Below, piece after piece: positions 1 to 27,540 of a stretch of 27,540 nt of DNA. A program made the position numbers and the translations under genes. The stretch's first letter is position 1, and every line of letters starts with the position of its first letter. The stretch lies in the IMG/VR virus record IMGVR_UViG_2529292834_000005, positions 1-27,540 of that record. The stretch is one strand, 5' to 3'. The notes below the pieces were generated by a model. That model was not told where the DNA came from, did not search any database, and was given only the letters and a program-made list of their open reading frames with translations. Origin of the DNA: a virus (Duplodnaviria > Heunggongvirae > Uroviricota > Caudoviricetes).

Positions 1-462
1 CCTCCGGCAGGAAACAACAGCACCCTGATTGCCAGCACCGCCTTTGTACAGGCTGCTATTCTTGCCCTGATTGGTGGTGCACCGGCAACGCTGGATACGC
101 TGAAAGAAATTGCAGCAGCTATCAATAATGATCCGAATTTCAGTACCACCATTAACAATGCGCTGGCACTGAAAGCACCGCTGGCAAGTCCGGCCCTGAC
201 CGGAACGCCAACGGCTCCCACTGCTGTTCAGTCAACGAATAATACGCAGATTGCCACTACCGCGTTTGTGAAATCTGCTGTTGCGGGGCTGGTTGGTTCG
301 TCGCCGGAGGCGCTGGACACACTGAATGAACTGGCGGCTGCGCTGGGGAATGATCCTAACTTTGCGACAACAGTGATGAACGCGCTGGCGGGTAAACAGC
401 CACTTGATGCCACGCTGACGAATCTAAGCGGGAAAAGTGTTTCGGCCCTTCTACAATACCTT
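1..462. repeat. Left copy of perfect inverted repeat (window-truncated), encodes central tail-fiber segment
   Basis: Seen directly: position x pairs with position 2414-x; reverse complement of 1-60 equals 2354-2413; identical 61-aa shadow ORFs at 228-413(-) and 2001-2186(+); identity stops after 462/1952. Confidence 0.95.
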
Positions 463-771
463 GGTTTAAGGGCAAGCGGTCAGTACACCGATAACTTGTT
501 ATTTACAGGCCCTGATGGACTTAAGATTCAGGTGTTTCGCAGAACGCTCGCAAATCAGACTACTGTCGGCGTAGTAAATACAGTGCCAGTGACTTTCCCT
601 GTCCCGTTCCCCGTTAATTGCTGGGGTGTTTTTTCTACCAAATTAACATGGGTTCAGATAGCCAACTCATGCGAGTGGGTAAGCAATACAGGTTTCACCG
701 CTCAGGTCATGATGAATATTGCTGTAAATACAAACACCTCAGAAGCCATGTTTTTAGCTATAGGATATTAA
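1..771 (+). CDS. Alternative tail-fiber C-terminal cassette (5' end beyond window), inverted relative to the H operon
   Basis: In-frame from position 1; first 154 aa identical to the central region of H on the minus strand, then a distinct C-terminus (GLRASGQYTDNLLF...FLAIGY); followed by its own assembly gene. Confidence 0.7.
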   Translation, partial: PPAGNNSTLIASTAFVQAAILALIGGAPATLDTLKEIAAAINNDPNFSTTINNALALKAPLASPALTGTPTAPTAVQSTNNTQIATTAFVKSAVAGLVGSSPEALDTLNELAAALGNDPNFATTVMNALAGKQPLDATLTNLSGKSVSALLQYLGLRASGQYTDNLLFTGPDGLKIQVFRRTLANQTTVGVVNTVPVTFPVPFPVNCWGVFSTKLTWVQIANSCEWVSNTGFTAQVMMNIAVNTNTSEAMFLAIGY

Positions 772-772
772 T

Positions 773-1213
773 ATGAATCGTTTTGTATTCAGCCCATCAG
801 AGTCCCGTTTTTATGCCATCGAATGGCGTGCTGATTATGTCGATAATAATTGCTGGCCGCATGATGCCATTAACGTTAGTGACAGCACTTATTATGAGTT
901 TTCCGGCACTCCACCTACAGGTAAGCAACTTATAACTTTAAATAATATGCCATCATGGGGTGATATTCCCCCGCCTACACGAGAAGAATTAATTGCCGCT
1001 GCTGATATGGAGAAACAAAAAAGAATAGATTTAGCCAATGATTACATGAACGTTAAGCAGTGGCCCGGTAAGGCAGCGATTGGCAGGCTGAAAGGAGAAG
1101 GGCTAACTCAATACAATCTGTGGCTGGATTATCTGGATGCACTGGAAGCGGTAGACACCTCCAGTGCTACGGATATCGAATGGCCTACGCCTCCGGGGGA
1201 ACAGGCCAGTTAA
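773..1213 (+). CDS. Tail fiber assembly protein, alternative copy
   Basis: 146 aa starting 2 bp after the alternative fiber cassette; shares PPxTREELIAAA and C-terminal WPxPP motifs with the minus-strand assembly protein; P2 G / Mu U family by recollection. Confidence 0.8.
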   Translation: MNRFVFSPSESRFYAIEWRADYVDNNCWPHDAINVSDSTYYEFSGTPPTGKQLITLNNMPSWGDIPPPTREELIAAADMEKQKRIDLANDYMNVKQWPGKAAIGRLKGEGLTQYNLWLDYLDALEAVDTSSATDIEWPTPPGEQAS

Positions 1214-1607
1214 CATGCTCAGGGTCGGTTGTCACATCAGCCGACTTAACTCCATTTTTATAGGCCAGCCACGCCGACAGCTTAGCTCTGTTGGCGTCGC
1301 TGATTTCACCGAGCATCAGTTCTGTTCGCCAGTCCAGCATAACAGCGTCAGCATGGGCCAGTAGTTTCTGGCGTTCTTGTTCGGCAGCAGCAATCAACTC
1401 TTCACGTGTCGCCGGTGGAATATCAATCCAGACTGGCATATTTTGGCTGGAACTTAGCTGTTTGCCTTCAGGCGGTGCAAAGTTATATTCATTTCTGACG
1501 CTATCAGAAACCTCTATAACATCAGATGGTAATGAACCATTGGTAAGGTATTCTTCTTTCATCTCGATGGGGTAAAAACCCAATGTGCTTGGCGAAAATA
1601 AATACAT
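1185..1607 (-). CDS. G: Tail fiber assembly protein (P2 gpG-like)
   Basis: 140 aa directly downstream of H on the minus strand; paralog of 773-1213; 3' ends of the two converge and overlap by 29 bp. Confidence 0.85.
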   Translation of the reverse strand: MYLFSPSTLGFYPIEMKEEYLTNGSLPSDVIEVSDSVRNEYNFAPPEGKQLSSSQNMPVWIDIPPATREELIAAAEQERQKLLAHADAVMLDWRTELMLGEISDANRAKLSAWLAYKNGVKSADVTTDPEHVNWPVPPEA

Positions 1608-8108: not shown

Positions 8109-8621
8109 TCAGGACGCTCCTTTTAAGCACCAGGCCATTTCCCGCGCGCGGCGGTTCTCCAGACCTTTATTTTTCACACCGTTAACGTAAATCCAGCGCG
8201 GTAGCTGGTTACATGCCTGCCACCACTGCTGACGATTGATATATGACACCATGGTTGACCTGCAGATCGCGCCGGTCCCCACATTGAAACCAATACTCAC
8301 CAGCGCATCGTAGACATGTTGCGGGGGCTTAACCGTCAGGCAGGCATCCAGCCTTTTTTCAGTCAGCAACACATTGTTTATTAACCCCTGCGCCGCCTGC
8401 CGTTCCGTGATAGTTTTCCCCGGCACCACCCCGGATGTATTTCCGATCCCGTCAGTCCAGACACCTGCGCTGCACTGATACGGCTGCAAACGACATCCCT
8501 CGTAATCGGCAATCAGTTTCAGCCCTTCAACGGAGGTTTTGAGCGACTGGAAACCGGGCAGCGTGGCGGCGACAGCCAGCACAGCCCCGACAAGGCAGCG
8601 CTTAACGATTGAAGGATTCAT
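8109..8621 (-). CDS. K: Endolysin, phage lysozyme with N-terminal signal-anchor (P2 gpK-like)
   Basis: Start at ATG 8621 (MNPSIVKRCLVGAVLAVAATL...); E-x8-D-x5-T catalytic pattern in YEGCRLQPYQCSAGVWTDGIGNT; alternative start at 8645 possible. Confidence 0.85.
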   Translation of the reverse strand: MNPSIVKRCLVGAVLAVAATLPGFQSLKTSVEGLKLIADYEGCRLQPYQCSAGVWTDGIGNTSGVVPGKTITERQAAQGLINNVLLTEKRLDACLTVKPPQHVYDALVSIGFNVGTGAICRSTMVSYINRQQWWQACNQLPRWIYVNGVKNKGLENRRAREMAWCLKGAS

Positions 8622-8817
8622 ATTCCCCCCGTGAAATTTTGCCATCGCGCAGCAACCTGAAAGACTGGTGTTTGTAGTACCAGTTGATAGCCAGCATCAG
8701 CACACCAATCAGCACGCCGCCAACCGTTGATGCATCCTTGAGCGACAGATCGCCCAACCATGCCAGCAGCACGGCGATGCAGTAAGTAATAAAGGCGCTG
8801 ATTCGTTCAAGCGTCAT
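8602..8817 (-). CDS. Y: Holin (putative, P2 gpY position)
   Basis: 71 aa, two hydrophobic helices and a charged C-terminus; directly upstream of and overlapping the endolysin start. Confidence 0.7.
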   Translation of the reverse strand: MTLERISAFITYCIAVLLAWLGDLSLKDASTVGGVLIGVLMLAINWYYKHQSFRLLRDGKISRGEYESFNR

Positions 8818-14059: not shown

Positions 14060-15099
14060 TGAGTGAATACGACGCTCTGAGCAACACCGCGCCAGTGCAG
14101 GAGGCCGAACAGCAGAAGAATACAACTCACGCCGAAGCGTTCAGCTTTGGCGATCCGATCCCGGTACTGGACCGCCGCGAACTGCTGGACTATGTGGAAT
14201 GCGTACAGATGGACAGATGGTATGAACCTCCGGTGAGTTTTGACGGACTGGCACGGACCTATCGTGCCGCCGTGCATCACAGCTCGCCGATTGCCGTCAA
14301 ACGTAACATCCTGACCAGCACCTTTATCCCACATCCGCTGCTGAGCCAGCAGGCGTTCAGCCGCTTTGTGCAGGACTATCTGGTGTTCGGTAACGCCTAT
14401 CTGGAGAAGCGCACCAACCGCCTTGGAGGTATTCTGTCGCTGGAACCGTCGCTGGCGAAATATACCCGCCGCGGCGTGGATCTTGATACTTACTGGTTTG
14501 TGCAGTACGGCATGACCACGCAGCCCTACGAATTCACTAAAGGCAGCATCTTTCACCTGATGGAGCCGGATTTAAACCAGGAGATTTACGGCTTGCCGGA
14601 ATATCTGTCAGCCATTCCCTCCGCCCTGCTAAACGAGTCCGCTACGCTGTTCCGCCGCAAGTATTACATCAACGGCAGCCACGCGGGCTTCATCATGTAC
14701 ATGACCGACGCCGCACAAAATCAGGAGGACGTGAACAACATCCGCCAGGCGATGAAAAGTGCCAAAGGGCCGGGTAACTTCCGCAACCTGTTTATGTACT
14801 CACCCAACGGGAAAAAGGACGGGATTCAGATCATCCCATTATCAGAGGTGGCGGCTAAAGATGAGTTTCTGAATATCAAGAACGTGAGCCGCGATGACAT
14901 GATGGCAGCACACCGCGTGCCGCCGCAGATGATGGGGATCATGCCCAACAATGTTGGCGGATTTGGGGATGTGGAAAAGGCCAGTTGCGTCTTTGTACGA
15001 AACGAGCTAATGCCATTGCAAAAGCGACTGCAGGAGCTAAACAATTGGTTGGACGAAGAAATAATTCGCTTCGAATCTTATAAATTAAACCTAAATTAA
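14056..15099 (+). CDS. Q: Portal protein (P2 gpQ-like)
   Basis: 347 aa; last gene before the cos region, as in P2. Confidence 0.9.
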   Translation: MMSEYDALSNTAPVQEAEQQKNTTHAEAFSFGDPIPVLDRRELLDYVECVQMDRWYEPPVSFDGLARTYRAAVHHSSPIAVKRNILTSTFIPHPLLSQQAFSRFVQDYLVFGNAYLEKRTNRLGGILSLEPSLAKYTRRGVDLDTYWFVQYGMTTQPYEFTKGSIFHLMEPDLNQEIYGLPEYLSAIPSALLNESATLFRRKYYINGSHAGFIMYMTDAAQNQEDVNNIRQAMKSAKGPGNFRNLFMYSPNGKKDGIQIIPLSEVAAKDEFLNIKNVSRDDMMAAHRVPPQMMGIMPNNVGGFGDVEKASCVFVRNELMPLQKRLQELNNWLDEEIIRFESYKLNLN

Positions 15100-15103
15100 G
15101 CTC

Positions 15104-15135
15104 AAAAAATGCCTGCTACCGCAGGCACTTTGTTT
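15104..15135. terminator. Bidirectional rho-independent terminator between convergent Q and the 97-aa gene
   Basis: Seen: 7-bp stem tgcctgc / gcaggca with loop tacc, A6 on one side and a T-rich run on the other. Confidence 0.7.
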
Positions 15136-15427
15136 ACTCTTTAACAAGTGTAGCCCACACAGAGTCTTCAACCTCTTCAACAACAATATTGATGTTGCAA
15201 ATAACATGGTCTTCACTCTCACGAGTATATCTGAATAGCCTTGTTTTTACTTTCCCACCAAACGACTCACGGCCTTCCTTATTGGTAATGTCGACATAAT
15301 CCCCCACATTCGGAAGCATCAGAAGCGTATTGTCTTCAGAAGAACATCCTACAATATCTCCATCGTCAAGAGGTCGCATGTCCCCTTTACACAGGTATTG
15401 AAAGTCATAGCTGTAGGTAGTTTTCAT
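15134..15427 (-). CDS. Hypothetical 97-aa cargo protein between cos and Q
   Basis: ORF only; acidic, no recognisable motif; no counterpart in the P2 map at this position. Confidence 0.55.
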   Translation of the reverse strand: MKTTYSYDFQYLCKGDMRPLDDGDIVGCSSEDNTLLMLPNVGDYVDITNKEGRESFGGKVKTRLFRYTRESEDHVICNINIVVEEVEDSVWATLVKE

Positions 15428-15599
15428 TATTTATCCTTTGAAGGTAACAGTGCTTACATATGTTGGTTCAGTGGCTTAACATGGAGTTAAGGCTCTGAAA
15501 TGAGCATCATTTGAATGTAACAATATATTGCAACATGGACTCGAAAACTTCAAATCAATCTTCCCGACAGAGAGGTGTATTACTTTTACTACCTGTTAC

Positions 15600-15630
15600 G
15601 CGCGCTCGTATCCCCGCCACGCCTGCCCGC
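15600..15630. other. Putative cos site (cohesive-end region)
   Basis: Minus-strand reading GGCGTGGCGGGGA matches the start of the P2/186 19-nt cohesive end as I recall it (P2 GGCGAGGCGGGGAAAGCAC); lies between Q and the A-side genes, as in P2. Confidence 0.5.
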
Positions 15631-15740
15631 TTTTTGTAGCGATTTTCATGCAGGTGCATGACATAAGCAAAAGCCCACCAGAACTGGCGGGCCTCAGCAA
15701 AAACGATCCTCAAACGATCATGCATATTCATGCGGCATAG

Positions 15741-16523
15741 TCATGCAGTGACTTTGGTCTGGTCAGGCGTAGAAAAATCTTCGAAAGATTTATAAGTTTC
15801 AGTATCAAATATTGAAATACTCTCAACCTGATCCATTGGGATTACATGCCTAAAATGATTTAAGTTCAGTGGAGTTGAGTCTGCTGTAATATTTTTGCTA
15901 AGGTAAAGTTCATAGTAACGATGCTGCTCATGGTATCTGAGCGTATCTTTATCACGATAACCACTAATGTATGGTATGAGAGCCAGATGCTGAGTTTCCT
16001 GATGCTCCATCCGAGGAGCAGCTACGTAACCAATGTAAACTTTTCTGGATTTTAGCGTAACAAAGATGAGCTTACCTTCATCTATAGCCTGAACTAACAG
16101 TGACTCAATTCCATCTTGAGCTGCCATCTCGCGATATGCAGATTGACGAATCTCTTCGTTTTCTATTGCTCTTCGCGCATTGTTACCTTGGTCATAAGCA
16201 ATAAACACCGCAAGCAGCATAGACAACACAAAGAACAATGGGTAAGACATTATCTTTACGTCTGTGAGCCATGAATAAAAGTCCACATGTAACTTAGGCC
16301 AAAAATAGCCAAAAACATTGATAACTGAGCTTATAACTAGCAAACTAACGAATGTAACAGCCATCAGAGTAAACCCCTGAATAGCAAACTTACAACCATG
16401 CATAGCTACATAAAAATAGGAATTCCAACCATTACTTCTTGCTTGCCTGATGCGGGACTGGTAATGATTTTCGGTGTACCAGAACCCGCAAACCAGGACG
16501 ACCATGATAACTAAGGGTCCCAT
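15741..16523 (-). CDS. Membrane protein, 260 aa, 3-4 N-terminal TM helices plus about 150-aa soluble domain; hotspot cargo
   Basis: Hydrophobic segments at about residues 3-17, 46-75 and 91-110; starts 3 bp after the 66-aa gene; occupies the slot of P2 tin/old next to cos. Confidence 0.75.
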   Translation of the reverse strand: MGPLVIMVVLVCGFWYTENHYQSRIRQARSNGWNSYFYVAMHGCKFAIQGFTLMAVTFVSLLVISSVINVFGYFWPKLHVDFYSWLTDVKIMSYPLFFVLSMLLAVFIAYDQGNNARRAIENEEIRQSAYREMAAQDGIESLLVQAIDEGKLIFVTLKSRKVYIGYVAAPRMEHQETQHLALIPYISGYRDKDTLRYHEQHRYYELYLSKNITADSTPLNLNHFRHVIPMDQVESISIFDTETYKSFEDFSTPDQTKVTA

Positions 16524-16526
16524 TCC

Positions 16527-16727
16527 TCATCCTTGTCGTTTTGCAGCCAATTCTTCCATTCTGGCACGCATTGATTCACGTACCTGCTTATTGTTCATGT
16601 TTAAGGTCGCCGCACCATTAGCATCTGTGATAATTTTACTATTATCAGACTGTTGCACATCCTGACGGATAACATCCTGCATAATCTTACCCGGTGCAGA
16701 GAGAACTTTGCGCAGAAGTTCAGACAT
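16527..16727 (-). CDS. Small hydrophilic protein, 66 aa, first gene of two-gene cargo cassette
   Basis: Start placed at ATG 16727 with strong RBS AAGGAGG; the ORF-track N-terminal extension is not supported by an RBS. Confidence 0.6.
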   Translation of the reverse strand: MSELLRKVLSAPGKIMQDVIRQDVQQSDNSKIITDANGAATLNMNNKQVRESMRARMEELAAKRQG

Positions 16728-16946
16728 ATTTTCCTCCTTATGCCTCAAACGCCACGGATTGTGGTGCATGGAGGCTGTCATCTTATAATTATAGGACAAC
16801 AAAAATACGAAACTATTCGAAGAGTGCTACGTATTAACCTATTTACATATCACCCTGCAACCAATTTATCCATAACTAACGCCTCGCACGGCTCGTTGCT
16901 CAACCTTGCGAACGGTAAAAACCAGTTTTATCGTCCGCAACGTTCC

Positions 16947-17180
16947 CTAATGTAACCAGCTGTCGTCCTCCCAGACCTGCTGCATGATTTCCATCACTCG
17001 CTTTTTGTCTTCATCCAGTTTTAACCCGCTCAGTTCAACACCATTGGCGCTGCCCTTACGGATACGAATTGCTGTTTTGGGATACAGAGGGCGCAAATTA
17101 CGGTAAAGCTCGGATTCAAGGGCTTCCAGTGTGACCTGGCTAATCTTCAGCTCTTTATCGATCATTATTTCAATGCGCAT
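16947..17180 (-). CDS. DinI-family protein
   Basis: 77 aa, MRIEIMIDKELK...VMEIMQQVWEDDSWLH resembles E. coli DinI from memory (MRIEVTIAK...ETWESADDW). Confidence 0.75.
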   Translation of the reverse strand: MRIEIMIDKELKISQVTLEALESELYRNLRPLYPKTAIRIRKGSANGVELSGLKLDEDKKRVMEIMQQVWEDDSWLH

Positions 17181-17191
17181 ACAGATTCCCT

Positions 17192-17380
17192 TTAACTGGT
17201 AACGTCCATTGACCGGCTGTATTCATGGCTGCGAATTTTCGCCATCAACTCGTCAGTCAGTTCAGACACCCACTGGATAGCCAGCCGCTTTTCTTCATCG
17301 CTGCACTCACTAGCCGCTACAAGCTTGATAAAAAAATCAATACGCTGGAGCTTCAATGACTCCAAAAGATAGTCCTGCAT
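17192..17380 (-). CDS. Small SOS-regulated protein, 62 aa, possible Tum-like antirepressor
   Basis: Start at ATG 17380 with RBS AGGAGG; LexA box about 50 bp upstream; in phage 186 the LexA-controlled tum gene sits at this end of the genome and is DinI-related (recollection). Confidence 0.5.
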   Translation of the reverse strand: MQDYLLESLKLQRIDFFIKLVAASECSDEEKRLAIQWVSELTDELMAKIRSHEYSRSMDVTS

Positions 17381-17427
17381 CTTCCCTCCTATCATTACAC
17401 GGATACACAACAACTGTATATATACCC

Positions 17428-17447
17428 ACTGTTTATATGAACAGTAT
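17428..17447. promoter_or_regulatory. LexA (SOS) box
   Basis: Seen: aCTGTttatatgaACAGta, a perfect CTGT-N8-ACAG with AT-rich spacer, in the promoter region of the 62-aa/DinI-like genes. Confidence 0.65.
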
Positions 17448-17538
17448 AATAGGAACAAAAAAATGTAAAACTGTTTTTTGTCAGTTAATTGGATACACTG
17501 ACACCAGTCAATAAAGCACGAAATGTTAAACAGCAGTC

Positions 17539-19989
17539 TTAGTACCACTGACGCCATTTGTCATCTTCCTGCAGCCGCTGGTTACGGTAAAAAATACGTA
17601 AACCGGCCCCGGATGGAATGCTGCCACCACGCAGAAGCAAATCAATCTCCGATGCACTACCTTCAAACCCTCTGGCAGTCAATTCCGCTTCAAGCTGCAG
17701 ACGCTGCTGCTCCGAAATACTCTGTTTGTAGGCTTTTTTCCGCTTCGGTTTTACCAGTCTCAACCTGGCTGTCAGCTCCCGGCGTTCCTTCTGGCCCATA
17801 TTGTATAGGTAATCCTGCAGTTCCTGCTCATTCATGGTTTTAATATCGGGCAGATCTCCCCCTGTATGGTTCAATTTTTCAACAGGGGGACAGTTATTGC
17901 CACGAGTCCAAGGGGCGCAAGCGCCCTGGTCGGCTGCCGCCTCCTGAATATCAACGGCCTTACGAACCTTTTTCCACTTCATCGCATGCGTGCAAATCTT
18001 GCCCTCTGCAATCGGGGACCAGATGCCATAGATACGGATACCGTGATCGCCGTAGGCGCTCGGTTCGTCGTTAAGCTCATAAGCAGTGCGGACAAGGTGA
18101 TGTTTGCGGGGAACCAGTACACCGCCCTGCTTCATGATGTAGGTGGCAAAGCAACCCGCATCTGCAGCCGCCAGTACCGCATCCAGACGTGGATTATCCA
18201 GTACAGGCGCACCCGCTTTGCGTTCGCCCTGTACTCTCGCCGCCTGACCAGCCAGCAAGCGCAGCTCGCGGTATGCCTGGCGCCCCGGAATACCAAAGAA
18301 ACGAAATTGCTGGACACGGTGCAGTGACGCCCAGGTGCTGACATGCTCGGCGCTGTCACGCAGTGATCTGCCGGTTTCTTTACTGATTTCTTTAGCCAGC
18401 CCGCGCCCGTCGATGTTCTTACTGATGTATTTGGCGATGTAGCTGGTCGGCGTGCCCTTGCGCGGGTTGATTAGCTCAGACTTGAAGCGCGGCCCGGTAT
18501 TGGTACCCAGCTCCTCGCGGTCTTCACGGATGGCAAACTTACGCAGCAGTGCGGTGATGGAACGGCGGTCTTTTTTGCGCATGAAGCACAGAAGATGCCA
18601 GTGCACGGTGCCGTCATGGTGCGGCTCTGCAACGCGAACGCCATACCAGCGCAGCCCGGCCTTGTGCATGGCCTTGCGGAAAGCGGCGAACGTATCAACC
18701 AGGTAGTCACTGCTCTGCCGGACAGTGGCACTGGTCCACTTCGGATTAGGTCTGCCGTTGTTGAGGGTTGCGTGGAAGCGTGACGGGCAGGTGATGGTAT
18801 AAAACACCGCGCAGTCTCCGCGCATTTCCGCGATCAGTTCCAGCCCTTTAACACAGGCCATCATTTCATTACGGCGGTGCGCCGGGTTGCTGTTGCTGGC
18901 GTTCACCACATCTTCCATGTCCAGCGTGTCACCGTCTTCGTTGACCAGCTCATGCGAGCGGAAGAACTCCAGCGATTTGCGGCGCTGCTCGCGTTTGTGG
19001 ATCACAGCTTCATAGCTGACATACGGGGACGCTTTCTTGTTGACCAGGCAGACGGCGCGCAGTTGCTCCTCCCGCCACTCACAGCGCATCTGCCACAATT
19101 TGCGATACCACCAGTCCGCACACAGCATGCGCGCCAGCGATGGTGGGATCAGTTCATAAGGCACTAGCTTGCGGCGACGCTTTTTGCGGCGCAACTTCTC
19201 AAAGGCAGGCGGGATGACCTCAAGGCGCATGGCTTCTGCAGCAACCCTTTCCCATGACTGGCGGATTTCTTCTGGTTTAACATCGTCACTGACAAACAGA
19301 TCACCGCAGGCCGCATCAAGACACATGCTCATATGTGCCGCAACCAGCGTGGACAGACGTTTGACCTGCTCCTGATTCATTTCAGGCAGTACCAGCAGCC
19401 CCTCCAGGCCGTCCTGGCTCGCCATGAACCGGAAAGACGCAGACACCTGGCTGTCACGCACGCGTTCCAGCCGCTCAAGACACGGTCTGATTGTTTCGCG
19501 CAGATAGCGGGAATAAGCTTTAGCCCTGCCCAGGCTATGGAAGTATTTAATTCGCTCCAGCAGAGGCTTGCTGATATGGGCAGGCATGGCGCTTACATCG
19601 GCAATAATCACCAAATCGGGATTAACGCGCTGCTGTTCGCGGGCCATTTTGGCATGGCTAATCAGCCGATCCTGCTCCATTTCACGCTGGACAGGATCGC
19701 GGGATTCATTGAAGAAATAACGTTCCCAAACCTTATCACTCAGCGCCTCACGGCGCAGATGCTCCCGCTCGTTATCCGCAGCGTACAGAGTGATGAGGTT
19801 TGAAAGCGCAGACTCCGGCGCAACTTCCGCCGGGTCCAGATACGGGTTAACCGCTTGTTTGGGCAAATTCCACGAATAAGGCCCGGCAACATTCTCAACG
19901 CTACCGGGATTTTCAGTTACAAACGTGGCTGCAAGACGGCCTGTACTGATTTCCGTCACTCGCAGACTCCCGCATAAACACTGCTGCAC
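17539..19989 (-). CDS. A: Replication initiation endonuclease (P2 gpA-like rolling-circle initiator)
   Basis: 816-aa ORF; contains [14 protein letters not shown] (active-site tyrosine motif type); true start may be internal, since the ORF overlaps the upstream gene by 34 bp. Confidence 0.85.
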
Positions 19990-25698: not shown

Positions 25699-26730
25699 AT
25701 GGAAAAAAGCATTTTTACTCTTATTTATTTTTCCCTTTTATTTTTGTGTCTATTTTCTTTTATTAAGTATCGACTTTACGAACTTAATCATAGAAGCTTA
25801 TTTCAACAACCACTATTCTGGGCTGCAATAGCGATACCCTTATTCACATGTCTTTATTTAGGCTCATTTGTCTGGATAAACAAATTAAACTCATTTAGCC
25901 TTACAAGCCACGGCTATCAGCGATTTCTCGACATATCAAAATTACCACTGCTAATTCTTGCATCTGCAGTACCTTTAGTCTCAATCGTTAATAACCTACA
26001 CCGGACCAAACAAACTGAAAAACAAATCTCAGAAGCAGAGAGAAAAAACAGAGTAGACTTATATTACAATCATATGAAGTTCCATCTTGATTTATATAAA
26101 AAGATTGAGTCAAAGAAAATCAGCAGTTACTATCCCATTGAAGAAACTCATAAAGAAGCTGTATATCAACATTTCATCAAACACCCGCAAGAACTTTACA
26201 GAAAAGCCTATCCCTTATCTTCACCAGATGACTCTCAATACTTAAACATCAGTGATAGTTTTATCATAGAACTGCATAAATGTTGGGTTGAAATCAATGG
26301 CAGACTGAAGCAACTATCAGAGAGCGATGTACAGCTAAATCCTGACCAAGAACTTTGTGCTTCAAAGATGAGAATTTTCTTTGGAATAATGAATATTTAT
26401 GAAAAGACTTGCAAGCATCTTTGTTTAGGGGGGTATCACACCCAAAAATCATTCATTTTGAATGATAAATTTGATAAGTATCAAATCTATTCGCCATTTT
26501 ATGACTTTGGAACTATGTACCAGTCTCTGCAGGCTCTGGAGGAAATTACATACGCCTTCCTAGATACATGTAGAAACGAAGAGGTAAATTTATATTTCCC
26601 GTTAGAAGACAAAATCCTCATCTATGGCGAAGGAATTCTTCAAGATTGGTTCAGGTATTCTCAGTTCTTGATTTCTACAGCTTATCAACCCTCCAGGATT
26701 GCGCGTCTACCAATGCCAGTACAAGTATAA
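25699..26730 (+). CDS. AT-rich membrane-anchored cargo protein, 343 aa (3 N-terminal TM helices plus about 245-aa soluble domain)
   Basis: Starts 2 bp after the int stop; hydrophobic segments at about 5-22, 39-59 and 80-97; markedly AT-rich; lies between int and the att core. Confidence 0.75.
   Translation: MEKSIFTLIYFSLLFLCLFSFIKYRLYELNHRSLFQQPLFWAAIAIPLFTCLYLGSFVWINKLNSFSLTSHGYQRFLDISKLPLLILASAVPLVSIVNNLHRTKQTEKQISEAERKNRVDLYYNHMKFHLDLYKKIESKKISSYYPIEETHKEAVYQHFIKHPQELYRKAYPLSSPDDSQYLNISDSFIIELHKCWVEINGRLKQLSESDVQLNPDQELCASKMRIFFGIMNIYEKTCKHLCLGGYHTQKSFILNDKFDKYQIYSPFYDFGTMYQSLQALEEITYAFLDTCRNEEVNLYFPLEDKILIYGEGILQDWFRYSQFLISTAYQPSRIARLPMPVQV

Positions 26731-26908: not shown

Positions 26909-27540
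<632 letters not shown>

Follow-up and report, generated by a model that had tools for sequence, protein, structure and literature searches.

The DNA analysed here is a stretch of 27,540 nucleotides (nt) from a virus of the class Caudoviricetes (IMG/VR record IMGVR_UViG_2529292834_000005, positions 1 to 27,540), referred to below as the window, which is a 186-type member of the P2 family and encodes a 186-type CI repressor and an integrase. Between replication gene A and the cohesive-end site cos, two adjacent genes on the minus strand encode a small basic protein of 66 amino acids (aa) and a membrane protein of 260 aa. An earlier note on this DNA, made from the letters alone, had described them as two coupled open reading frames (ORFs) with a strong ribosome-binding site (RBS) and a 3-nt spacing, carried as cargo at the place where phage P2 has its genes tin and old. 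Both ORFs were found on the minus strand at 15741-16727, and the landmarks on either side bear out the placement between gene A and cos. The main features are as follows, with all coordinates here and below given as positions in the window.

15748-16874, minus strand: accessory insert (moron), consisting of a 147-nt leader/promoter region and two genes, delimited by blastn against phage MLG42 and by GC content.
16527-16727, minus strand: small partner gene (ATG 16727 to stop 16527), 66 aa.
15741-16523, minus strand: membrane protein gene (ATG 16523 to stop 15741), 260 aa, with predicted helices at residues 2-19, 33-74 and 96-121, a helical linker at 123-149 and a cytoplasmic Sm-like beta-barrel at about 138-240.
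16739-16733, minus strand: Shine-Dalgarno (SD) sequence AAGGAGG of the small gene, 5 nt before its ATG, identified from sequence.
16947-17180, minus strand: DinI-family gene (Pfam DinI, 1e-23), a conserved phage gene directly upstream of the pair that forms the left flank of the slot.
17539-19989, minus strand: replication gene A (Pfam Phage_GPA).
About 15605-15623, minus strand: cos cohesive-end sequence GGCGTGGCGGGGATACGAG, a boundary landmark that resembles the P4/P2 cos region printed in Table S2A of Rousset et al. 2022.

Along the minus strand, gene A is followed by a 59-aa ORF (phrog_698), the DinI-family gene, the pair, an intrinsic terminator and cos, beyond which lie a 97-aa ORF and then the plus-strand genes for portal Q and the large terminase. 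The cohesive-end sequence at 15605-15623 is also similar to the cos of phage 186. The large gene starts 3 nt past the TGA of the small gene, with AAGGA located 6 nt 5' of its ATG. About 100 fetched loci and over 1,500 protein clusters contain full-length homologues, with identities of 17%-100%, and both ORFs are therefore real genes and not chance ORFs.

The pair is a real, horizontally mobile and probably autonomous two-gene moron in the gene A/DinI-to-cos slot of a 186/P2-like prophage. Yersinia phage MLG42 (L020) has an empty site; according to blastn, only 7 bp separate the counterparts of flanks 15592-15747 and 16875-17700 in it, compared with 1,127 bp in the window, and the accessory insert was assigned to 15748-16874 because the MLG42 flanks are nearly contiguous there. 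The GC content is 40.7% in the insert, whereas the window averages 51% and gene A reaches 56%, and other relatives have different cargo in the slot between the same conserved flanking genes. Presence or absence between constant flanks and a deviating base composition, two of the hallmarks of a moron in the sense of Hendrix, were thus both observed; as for a promoter and terminator of its own, a TATAAT with a weak -35 element was found, and the terminator is the resident one of the phage beside cos.

In a study of the gpA-gpQ hotspot, Rousset et al. (2022, Cell Host Microbe 30:740; PMC9122126) found 1,650 gene arrangements in 18,150 loci; P2 carries tin and old between gpA and gpQ, and several defence systems of the hotspot were validated in that study. 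The 260-aa protein is listed there in Table S5B as system #43, a single gene of E. coli P2-like prophages with 93 occurrences among 18,150 loci, no Pfam domain and '2 TM' (transmembrane segments), and it differs from the protein of the window at one residue (I61 in the table, S61 in the window). Both proteins are found in Table S5A for the CFT073 locus, as 'hypothetical + hypothetical'. This listing, together with the empty site and the low GC content, supports the earlier assignment of the pair to the cargo of the tin/old hotspot, and the comparison across related prophages that had been proposed revealed a slot of variable occupancy, empty in MLG42 and filled with different cargo in others. 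The use of P2 cos-proximal cargo as candidate defence and the presence of the 260-aa protein in a published catalogue are already known. However, system #43 was only catalogued, without its small partner and with no fold assigned, and no paper characterising the pair was found in a literature search of limited scope. New results are the two-gene nature of the module and its small-partner family, the predicted Sm-like fold, the precise limits of the insert, the range of phage types and sites that carry the pair, and the size of the family. The earlier note had missed the predicted C-terminal fold, the small-partner family and the prior cataloguing.

The small partner is hydrophilic, with an isoelectric point (pI) of 9.8 and no TM segment or signal peptide, and matches phrog_22451 (1e-43). 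Its AlphaFold2 (AF2) model, with a predicted local distance difference test (pLDDT) score of 75, contains two N-terminal helices, a beta-hairpin at residues 32-42 and a C-terminal helix at 47-65. ORFs of 58-85 aa upstream of 12 divergent homologues of the large protein share a hairpin-plus-helix core, D-x-D-G-x-h-x-h-N ... L. By using a hidden Markov model (HMM) derived from the alignment of these 12 partners, 96 of 99 loci were found to encode a small-partner homologue immediately ahead of the large gene (spacing -4 to +36 nt); the remaining three loci are without upstream DNA, which leaves a partner in 96 of 96 testable loci, 77 of which are independent IMG/VR loci outside the HMM-building set. 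Moreover, the pairwise identities of the two proteins are strongly correlated over 69 unique pairs (r = 0.94; Mantel 0/2000). The pair is an obligate, co-diverging two-gene unit, and the tight coupling proposed from the layout in the window extends to the whole set of loci. The pI exceeds 8 in 63 of the 69 small partners, hydrophobic segments are absent from all of them, and a profile search of the small family matched only proteins of 45-85 aa.

As a separate observation, many NCBI records give the name 'multidrug ABC transporter ATPase' to small partners of 70-72 aa (such as P0305, P0307 and P0336), which is evidently a propagated mis-annotation. Among the matches of the small-family profile search, the single genomic context examined contained the pair again.

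For the membrane protein, the AF2 model (pLDDT 83) shows helices at residues 2-19, 21-29, 33-74 and 96-121, a helical linker at 123-149 and a beta-rich domain at 152-250. According to hydropathy and the model, two helices are strongly hydrophobic (about 46-74 and 92-118), and a third one at the N-terminus (2-19) is moderately so. Three to four N-terminal TM helices and a soluble C-terminal domain had been proposed in the earlier note; the soluble domain was retained, but the predicted number of TM helices is two to three and not four. Phobius, as used by Rousset et al. 2022 (PMC9122126), gave two TM segments for the 260-aa protein. The positive-inside rule predicts an N-out/C-in topology with a cytoplasmic C-terminal domain.

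The highest conservation was found in this cytoplasmic domain, which contains invariant charged loops, and not in the periplasmic loop or the TM segments. Three conserved stretches stand out in the family alignment: a juxtamembrane motif (G-W-x-S-Y-F-x-V-A-x-x-G, residues 32-43), T-L-K-S-R-K-V-Y-I-G (156-165, with the invariant motif LKSRkvYxG at 157-165), and P-x-x-S-G-Y-R-D-K-D-T-L (184-195, with the motif PxxSGYRDK at 184-192). K158, S159, R160, Y163, G165, P184, S187, G188, Y189 and R190 are invariant, and D191 and K192 are at least 90% conserved. The C-terminal domain is acidic (pI 5.3), and its model consists of an N-terminal helix and five strongly bent antiparallel strands that can be superposed on LSm/Hfq. 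According to these structural predictions, the domain is an Sm-like/WYL-like small beta-barrel with invariant basic and aromatic loops.

It had also been claimed that neither protein resembles a recognised family, and the searches agreed with this. The membrane protein corresponds to phrog_3630, whose function is not assigned, and no Pfam, NCBIfam or PADLOC family was found for either protein, the PADLOC run being one of the checks suggested beforehand. A Pfam scan of 34 family members produced no recurrent weak match and nothing consistent, and a profile search of PDB sequences produced no match. Foldseek against the BFVD viral structures returned weak TM-helix matches only, with TM-scores of about 0.2; the best E-value was 2e-3, so that no match reached 1e-3.

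A profile search of 1.84 billion representative proteins revealed 2,676 clusters of the large protein (defined at 50% identity) at E-values up to 1e-3 and 1,535 at E-values up to 1e-10; nearly all matches are full length (240-310 aa), and distant members have no Pfam domain. At an identity of at least 99%, the pair was found in 16 of 5,426 complete Escherichia coli genomes. The genomic contexts were surveyed in about 100 loci. Forty-seven of them occupy the P2-like A-to-cos slot in Escherichia, Citrobacter, Salmonella and Klebsiella, and at least 11 are lambdoid, usually with the pair just past antiterminator Q and before other cargo or lysis genes. In an Aeromonas Mu-like prophage (L009) the pair lies between Mor and the endolysin gene, in Pseudoalteromonas phage C5a between the repressor and integrase genes, and in L099 between Baseplate_J and tail-fibre genes; it adjoins a P22-type antirepressor and ParA in L089, and one copy is located at a prophage end after the tape measure gene. 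Further copies lie beside an O-antigen-type acyltransferase gene (L052), next to a type III-B Cmr locus on a metagenomic contig (L018, a non-phage island), and in a chromosomal islet (L019). Neighbouring slots contain defence-type cargo, including TIGR02391/Hypoth_Ymh, SEFIR and TIR_2 proteins. Because the pair is found at so many unrelated accessory sites, it behaves as a promiscuous moron and not as a core or lysis gene. The earlier note had named two findings that would speak against its proposal, namely homology to a structural, lysis or exclusion protein of assigned function and conserved core positions in unrelated phages; no such homology was detected, and the pair in unrelated phages always lies at variable accessory sites.

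Two of these neighbourhoods deserve mention in their own right. In the Aeromonas Mu-like prophage, a TIR_2 protein is encoded 1.4 kb upstream of the pair (L009, 3826-4617). On the metagenomic contig, a DUF6602 gene and the type III-B Cmr operon lie within 1 kb of the pair (L018, 4224-8362).

The expression signals of the cassette, all identified in silico, include the following.

16793-16788, minus strand: candidate -10 hexamer TATAAT of a promoter of the cassette's own, with a weak -35 element (lax scan and comparative alignment).
16750-16766, minus strand: GC-rich leader hairpin CACCAC-AATCC-GTGGCG, seen by eye in the alignment.
About 15695-15664, minus strand: intrinsic terminator downstream of the membrane protein gene, with an 11-bp GC-rich stem and UUUUGCUU, in the conserved cos-proximal flank.
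17429-17444, plus strand: LexA box CTGTTTATATGAACAG, a perfect CTGT-N8-ACAG upstream of the 59-aa (phrog_698) and DinI genes.

The candidate -10 element is conserved in position, as TATAGT, TACAAT or TACACT, in the cassettes of other phage backbones. Among 60 unique leaders, which are not phylogenetically independent, 46 have a -10-like hexamer (at least 5 of 6 matches) at -80 to -30, compared with 13.7 +/- 3.2 in shuffled sequences, and an SD core is present in 50 of the 60 unique homologous upstream regions. The 147-nt leader is a part of the insert and moves with the cassette into other phage backbones. The leader hairpin lies between the candidate -10 element and the RBS of the small gene and is followed by a short U run, and its stem differs between cassette subtypes; the counterpart in relatives (L029-L046) is CGCCGC-TGCCA-GCGGCG, with at least one compensatory change in the by-eye alignment, hinting at a conserved leader structure or an attenuator. 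A search of Rfam with 14900-17700 found no RNA family.

Downstream of the pair, the terminator region has a predicted RNA fold of -35.5 kcal/mol over a 91-nt stretch (z -3.85; 0 of 200 shuffles). The flank is conserved in MLG42 and in a Klebsiella phage, and the terminator is considered resident to the phage and reused by the insert because it belongs to this cos-proximal flank; cassette transcription should end at this point. Upstream, the perfect LexA box substantiates the earlier claim of LexA-controlled genes on that side. The DinI gene is separated from the insert by only a hairpin that lacks a U tract and by no canonical terminator, and SOS-driven read-through from the LexA-controlled promoter into the cassette is therefore possible. 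In some relatives (L011 and L012), an intrinsic terminator precedes the leader. The LexA box with the 59-aa and DinI genes looks like a split version of the Tum arrangement of phage 186; of the 151 positions in the phrog_189 profile, the DinI protein covers only 71-148.

Several known systems resemble the pair in one respect or another. Like the pair, tin and old of P2 are prophage accessory genes between gene A and cos; both have a role in phage exclusion, and their products are soluble. Old combines an ABC-type ATPase with a TOPRIM nuclease, whereas the pair has neither domain, given that no Pfam, NCBIfam or PADLOC match was obtained, and its sizes of 66 and 260 aa are incompatible. Similarity to Tin was likewise not detected, on the indirect grounds that PADLOC and PHROG gave no functional match and that the membrane protein is unlike Tin. 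RexA and RexB of phage lambda are a prophage-expressed cytoplasmic partner and a polytopic inner-membrane protein, which are thought to collapse the membrane potential on infection, and they provide the closest analogy for how the pair may work. On the other hand, there is no homology; RexB has four TM segments and no cytoplasmic barrel, RexA has about 280 aa as opposed to the 66-aa basic protein, and the gene sizes are reversed. Other small cassettes near cos of P2/P4 elements, such as 2TM+1TM+TIR (phage AC1), Hydrolase+3TM, RT-nitrilase+1TM and gop-beta-cII (Rousset et al. 2022), likewise join a soluble component to a TM protein that is presumed to be the killing effector. Unlike these, the pair lacks a TIR, hydrolase or reverse transcriptase (RT) partner, and its only soluble partner is the 66-aa protein. 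It has no PADLOC match to those systems either, with the presence of models for them in PADLOC-DB 2.0.0 being unconfirmed. An analogy with Hailong was dropped because the pair has no nucleotidyltransferase partner.

With regard to the predicted barrel, the Sm/LSm/Hfq and WYL barrels compared (LSm6 3swn_B, Hfq 1kq1, DriD 7tzv and BrxR 7qfz) are free or joined to helix-turn-helix domains, whereas that of the pair is fused to TM helices and has an insertion between beta4 and beta5. No Pfam LSM, Hfq or WYL match was found for the query and 34 family members, and the Sm1/Sm2 motifs were not recognised. MscS has three N-terminal TM helices in an N-out/C-in topology, and the Sm-like beta domain that comes after them forms part of a heptameric ring. 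The likeness of the membrane protein to MscS is one of architecture only, and homology was ruled out (hhalign probability 0.06% against the verified E. coli MscS; no match to Pfam MS_channel).

The best explanation at present, adopted tentatively and at somewhat less than an even chance, is that the pair is a phage-exclusion module expressed from the prophage, in which the membrane protein is the effector and the small protein its regulator. An anti-phage role of any kind, either abortive infection or superinfection exclusion, is about an even chance at best; it is favoured because of the hotspot, the moron behaviour, the defence-type neighbours, the sensor-like conserved cytoplasmic loops on a membrane-anchored protein, and the obligate small partner. 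Within such a role, membrane-damaging abortive infection by analogy with RexAB is the first choice, although on its own rather unlikely. In this scheme, the pair would be expressed in the lysogen, and the membrane protein would probably multimerise under the membrane via its Sm-like domain, as barrels of the Sm/Hfq/MscS type do. The co-translated small basic partner may bind the acidic cytoplasmic domain and serve as a regulator or sensor adaptor. Infection could then release or trigger the complex, either through a ligand or nucleic acid at the KSR and SGYRDK loops or through loss of the small partner, and the triggered complex might permeabilise or depolarise the inner membrane (abortive infection) or block incoming DNA. 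A more specific form of this idea, distinctly unlikely as it stands, is that a membrane-anchored ring of Sm-like barrels senses a ligand, either a nucleic acid or a nucleotide, that appears where the phage genome enters or replicates, is held in check by the small basic partner, and opens or disrupts the membrane when triggered. If true, an Sm/WYL-type sensor fused directly to a membrane effector would represent a class of phage-borne immunity that is both new and widespread and has no counterpart among the defence systems described.

A number of points weigh against an exclusion module of this type. The poor conservation of TM3 is at odds with a pore-lining helix common to the family. Neither ring formation nor nucleic-acid binding follows from a small beta-barrel as such, since folds of this kind are common. 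Neither protein matched any of the 5,027 PADLOC models (PADLOC-DB 2.0.0, including candidate PDC families) at E-values up to 1. The generic promoter scan gave no minus-strand promoter at its threshold, and the candidate promoter remains an in silico one with a weak -35 element. Several lambdoid and Mu-like copies lie just upstream of lysis genes. Only about 21% of hotspot cargo proteins match DefenseFinder or known defence genes, and the cargo of the hotspot also includes partition systems and toxins (PMC9122126). A peptide search of Tables S2A and S2B identified neither protein among the systems cloned and tested by Rousset et al.

Much of the same evidence can be read in other ways. The pair could mediate a non-lethal superinfection exclusion, in which the inner-membrane protein blocks entry of the incoming genome, the small partner is an assembly or stability factor, and the cell survives. 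HK97 gp15, P22 SieA and T4 Imm are exclusion proteins of the kind to which the membrane protein would then be likened. An inner-membrane protein on a moron with its own promoter-like element, carried at accessory sites by many temperate phage types, would suit this role, and TM3 lacks the conservation expected of a pore; but conservation peaks in the charged loops of the cytoplasmic domain and not in the parts that would meet an incoming phage, and a conserved cytoplasmic basic partner is, to our knowledge, atypical of superinfection-exclusion proteins. This possibility ranks second among the anti-phage roles and is regarded as improbable. The small gene tightly coupled upstream of a larger one, the obligate and co-diverging pairing, and the contrast between a basic small partner and an acidic domain are consistent with an addiction module similar to toxin-antitoxin (TA) systems, with a toxic membrane protein that is neutralised by the small upstream protein, the pair mainly stabilising the prophage or element and not serving in phage defence. 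The likeness to type II TA systems is one of layout only (small gene upstream, with a gap of 3 nt here and -4 to +36 nt in 96 loci), no homology to a TA family was found in Pfam, NCBIfam or PADLOC, and this explanation carries a very low probability.

A similarly slight chance is given to an accessory function in the lytic cycle, with middle or late expression and an influence on lysis timing, membrane state or exclusion during lytic growth. It would fit the copies between antiterminator Q and the holin/endolysin genes in lambdoid loci (Enterobacter L006, Gilliamella L011, L076 and L086), the copy between Mor and endolysin in the Aeromonas Mu-like prophage, and the position of the window's pair downstream of SOS-controlled genes. 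However, the Q-to-S gap is itself a classic moron site, and in L076 the pair occupies the position of the stx genes in Stx phages. In P2-like phages, some 7 kb separate the pair from the resident Phage_holin_2_3 and Phage_lysozyme genes (8602-8817 and 8109-8645 in the window), and other copies are near immunity genes, a tail-fibre hotspot, prophage ends and a non-phage Cmr island; this diversity of insertion sites weakens the link to lysis. A 260-aa protein with a folded cytoplasmic domain of 120 aa is also unlike holins, which are small TM proteins (about 60-150 aa) encoded beside the endolysin gene and needed for lysis, and relatives without the insert are viable (MLG42). On the same grounds, the identification of the membrane protein as a holin or lysis protein was rejected. 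Finally, the pair might be a lysogenic-conversion or host-physiology factor outside phage conflict, such as a small channel or a stress or envelope modulator of benefit to the host, as suggested by an architecture of three TM segments and an Sm-like barrel, predicted to be N-out/C-in, that recalls MscS-type channels, and by the copies beside the acyltransferase gene (L052) and in the chromosomal islet (L019); the likelihood of this is equally small.

The gpA-cos-gpQ region is among the best validated anti-phage reservoirs, yet most of its cargo is unexplained. The pair is compact (1.1 kb), represented by at least 1,500 protein clusters, and distributed over P2-like, lambdoid, Mu-like and other prophages across Gammaproteobacteria, including that of uropathogenic E. 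coli CFT073. By recasting a catalogued '2 TM' gene as an obligate two-gene unit with a putative Sm-like, sensor-type cytoplasmic domain, the analysis provides a concrete and testable design. Should the pair prove to be a defence system, a new effector architecture would be gained; otherwise, one recurrent 'hypothetical' can be removed from the guilt-by-association lists of defence islands. The pair is a well-defined and attractive experimental target, albeit one that is unsurprising to a specialist until a phenotype is shown.

Besides the slot of the pair, a second and independent variable slot was identified between cos and portal Q (15075-15591), which in the window contains the following gene.

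15134-15427, minus strand: 97-aa ORF (phrog_12676, function not assigned; GC 41%).

This ORF was found in 0 of 80 IMG/VR loci, and elsewhere the slot contains a TIGR02391/Hypoth_Ymh protein (E. coli CFT073) or a SEFIR protein (Klebsiella phage ST15-OXA48phi14.1). In the fetched relatives, the pair lies anywhere between 310 and 3,700 bp from the portal gene, and Hypoth_Ymh is also present without the pair; the neighbours in the cos-portal slot are therefore separate cargo and not partners. The 97-aa ORF is not part of the cassette, as it sits on the other side of cos in this separate slot. A single system consisting of the pair and the 97-aa ORF, TIGR02391 or SEFIR genes was likewise ruled out, since cos divides the pair from those genes, whose slot is a separate one and varies independently.

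Some further features of the window were recorded. A mechanically called ORF of 58 aa (15555-15731, minus strand) covers the conserved terminator/cos flank; although its counterparts, of 144 nt in MLG42 and 69 aa in the Klebsiella phage, are annotated as hypothetical proteins, the cos region has probably been miscalled as a gene here. Directly after the integrase gene, a 343-aa ORF (25699-26730, plus strand; phrog_17460, 1e-165; no Pfam or PADLOC match) represents additional uncharacterised cargo near the attachment end and is followed by an integrase-like fragment (26978-27376). At the other end of the window, a C-terminal tail-fibre fragment (268-771, plus strand) and two opposed tail-fibre-assembly genes (773-1213, plus strand; 1185-1607, minus strand) were found, which suggests that the region 268-1607 is a host-range cassette that is inverted or exchanged in the manner known from Mu and P1.

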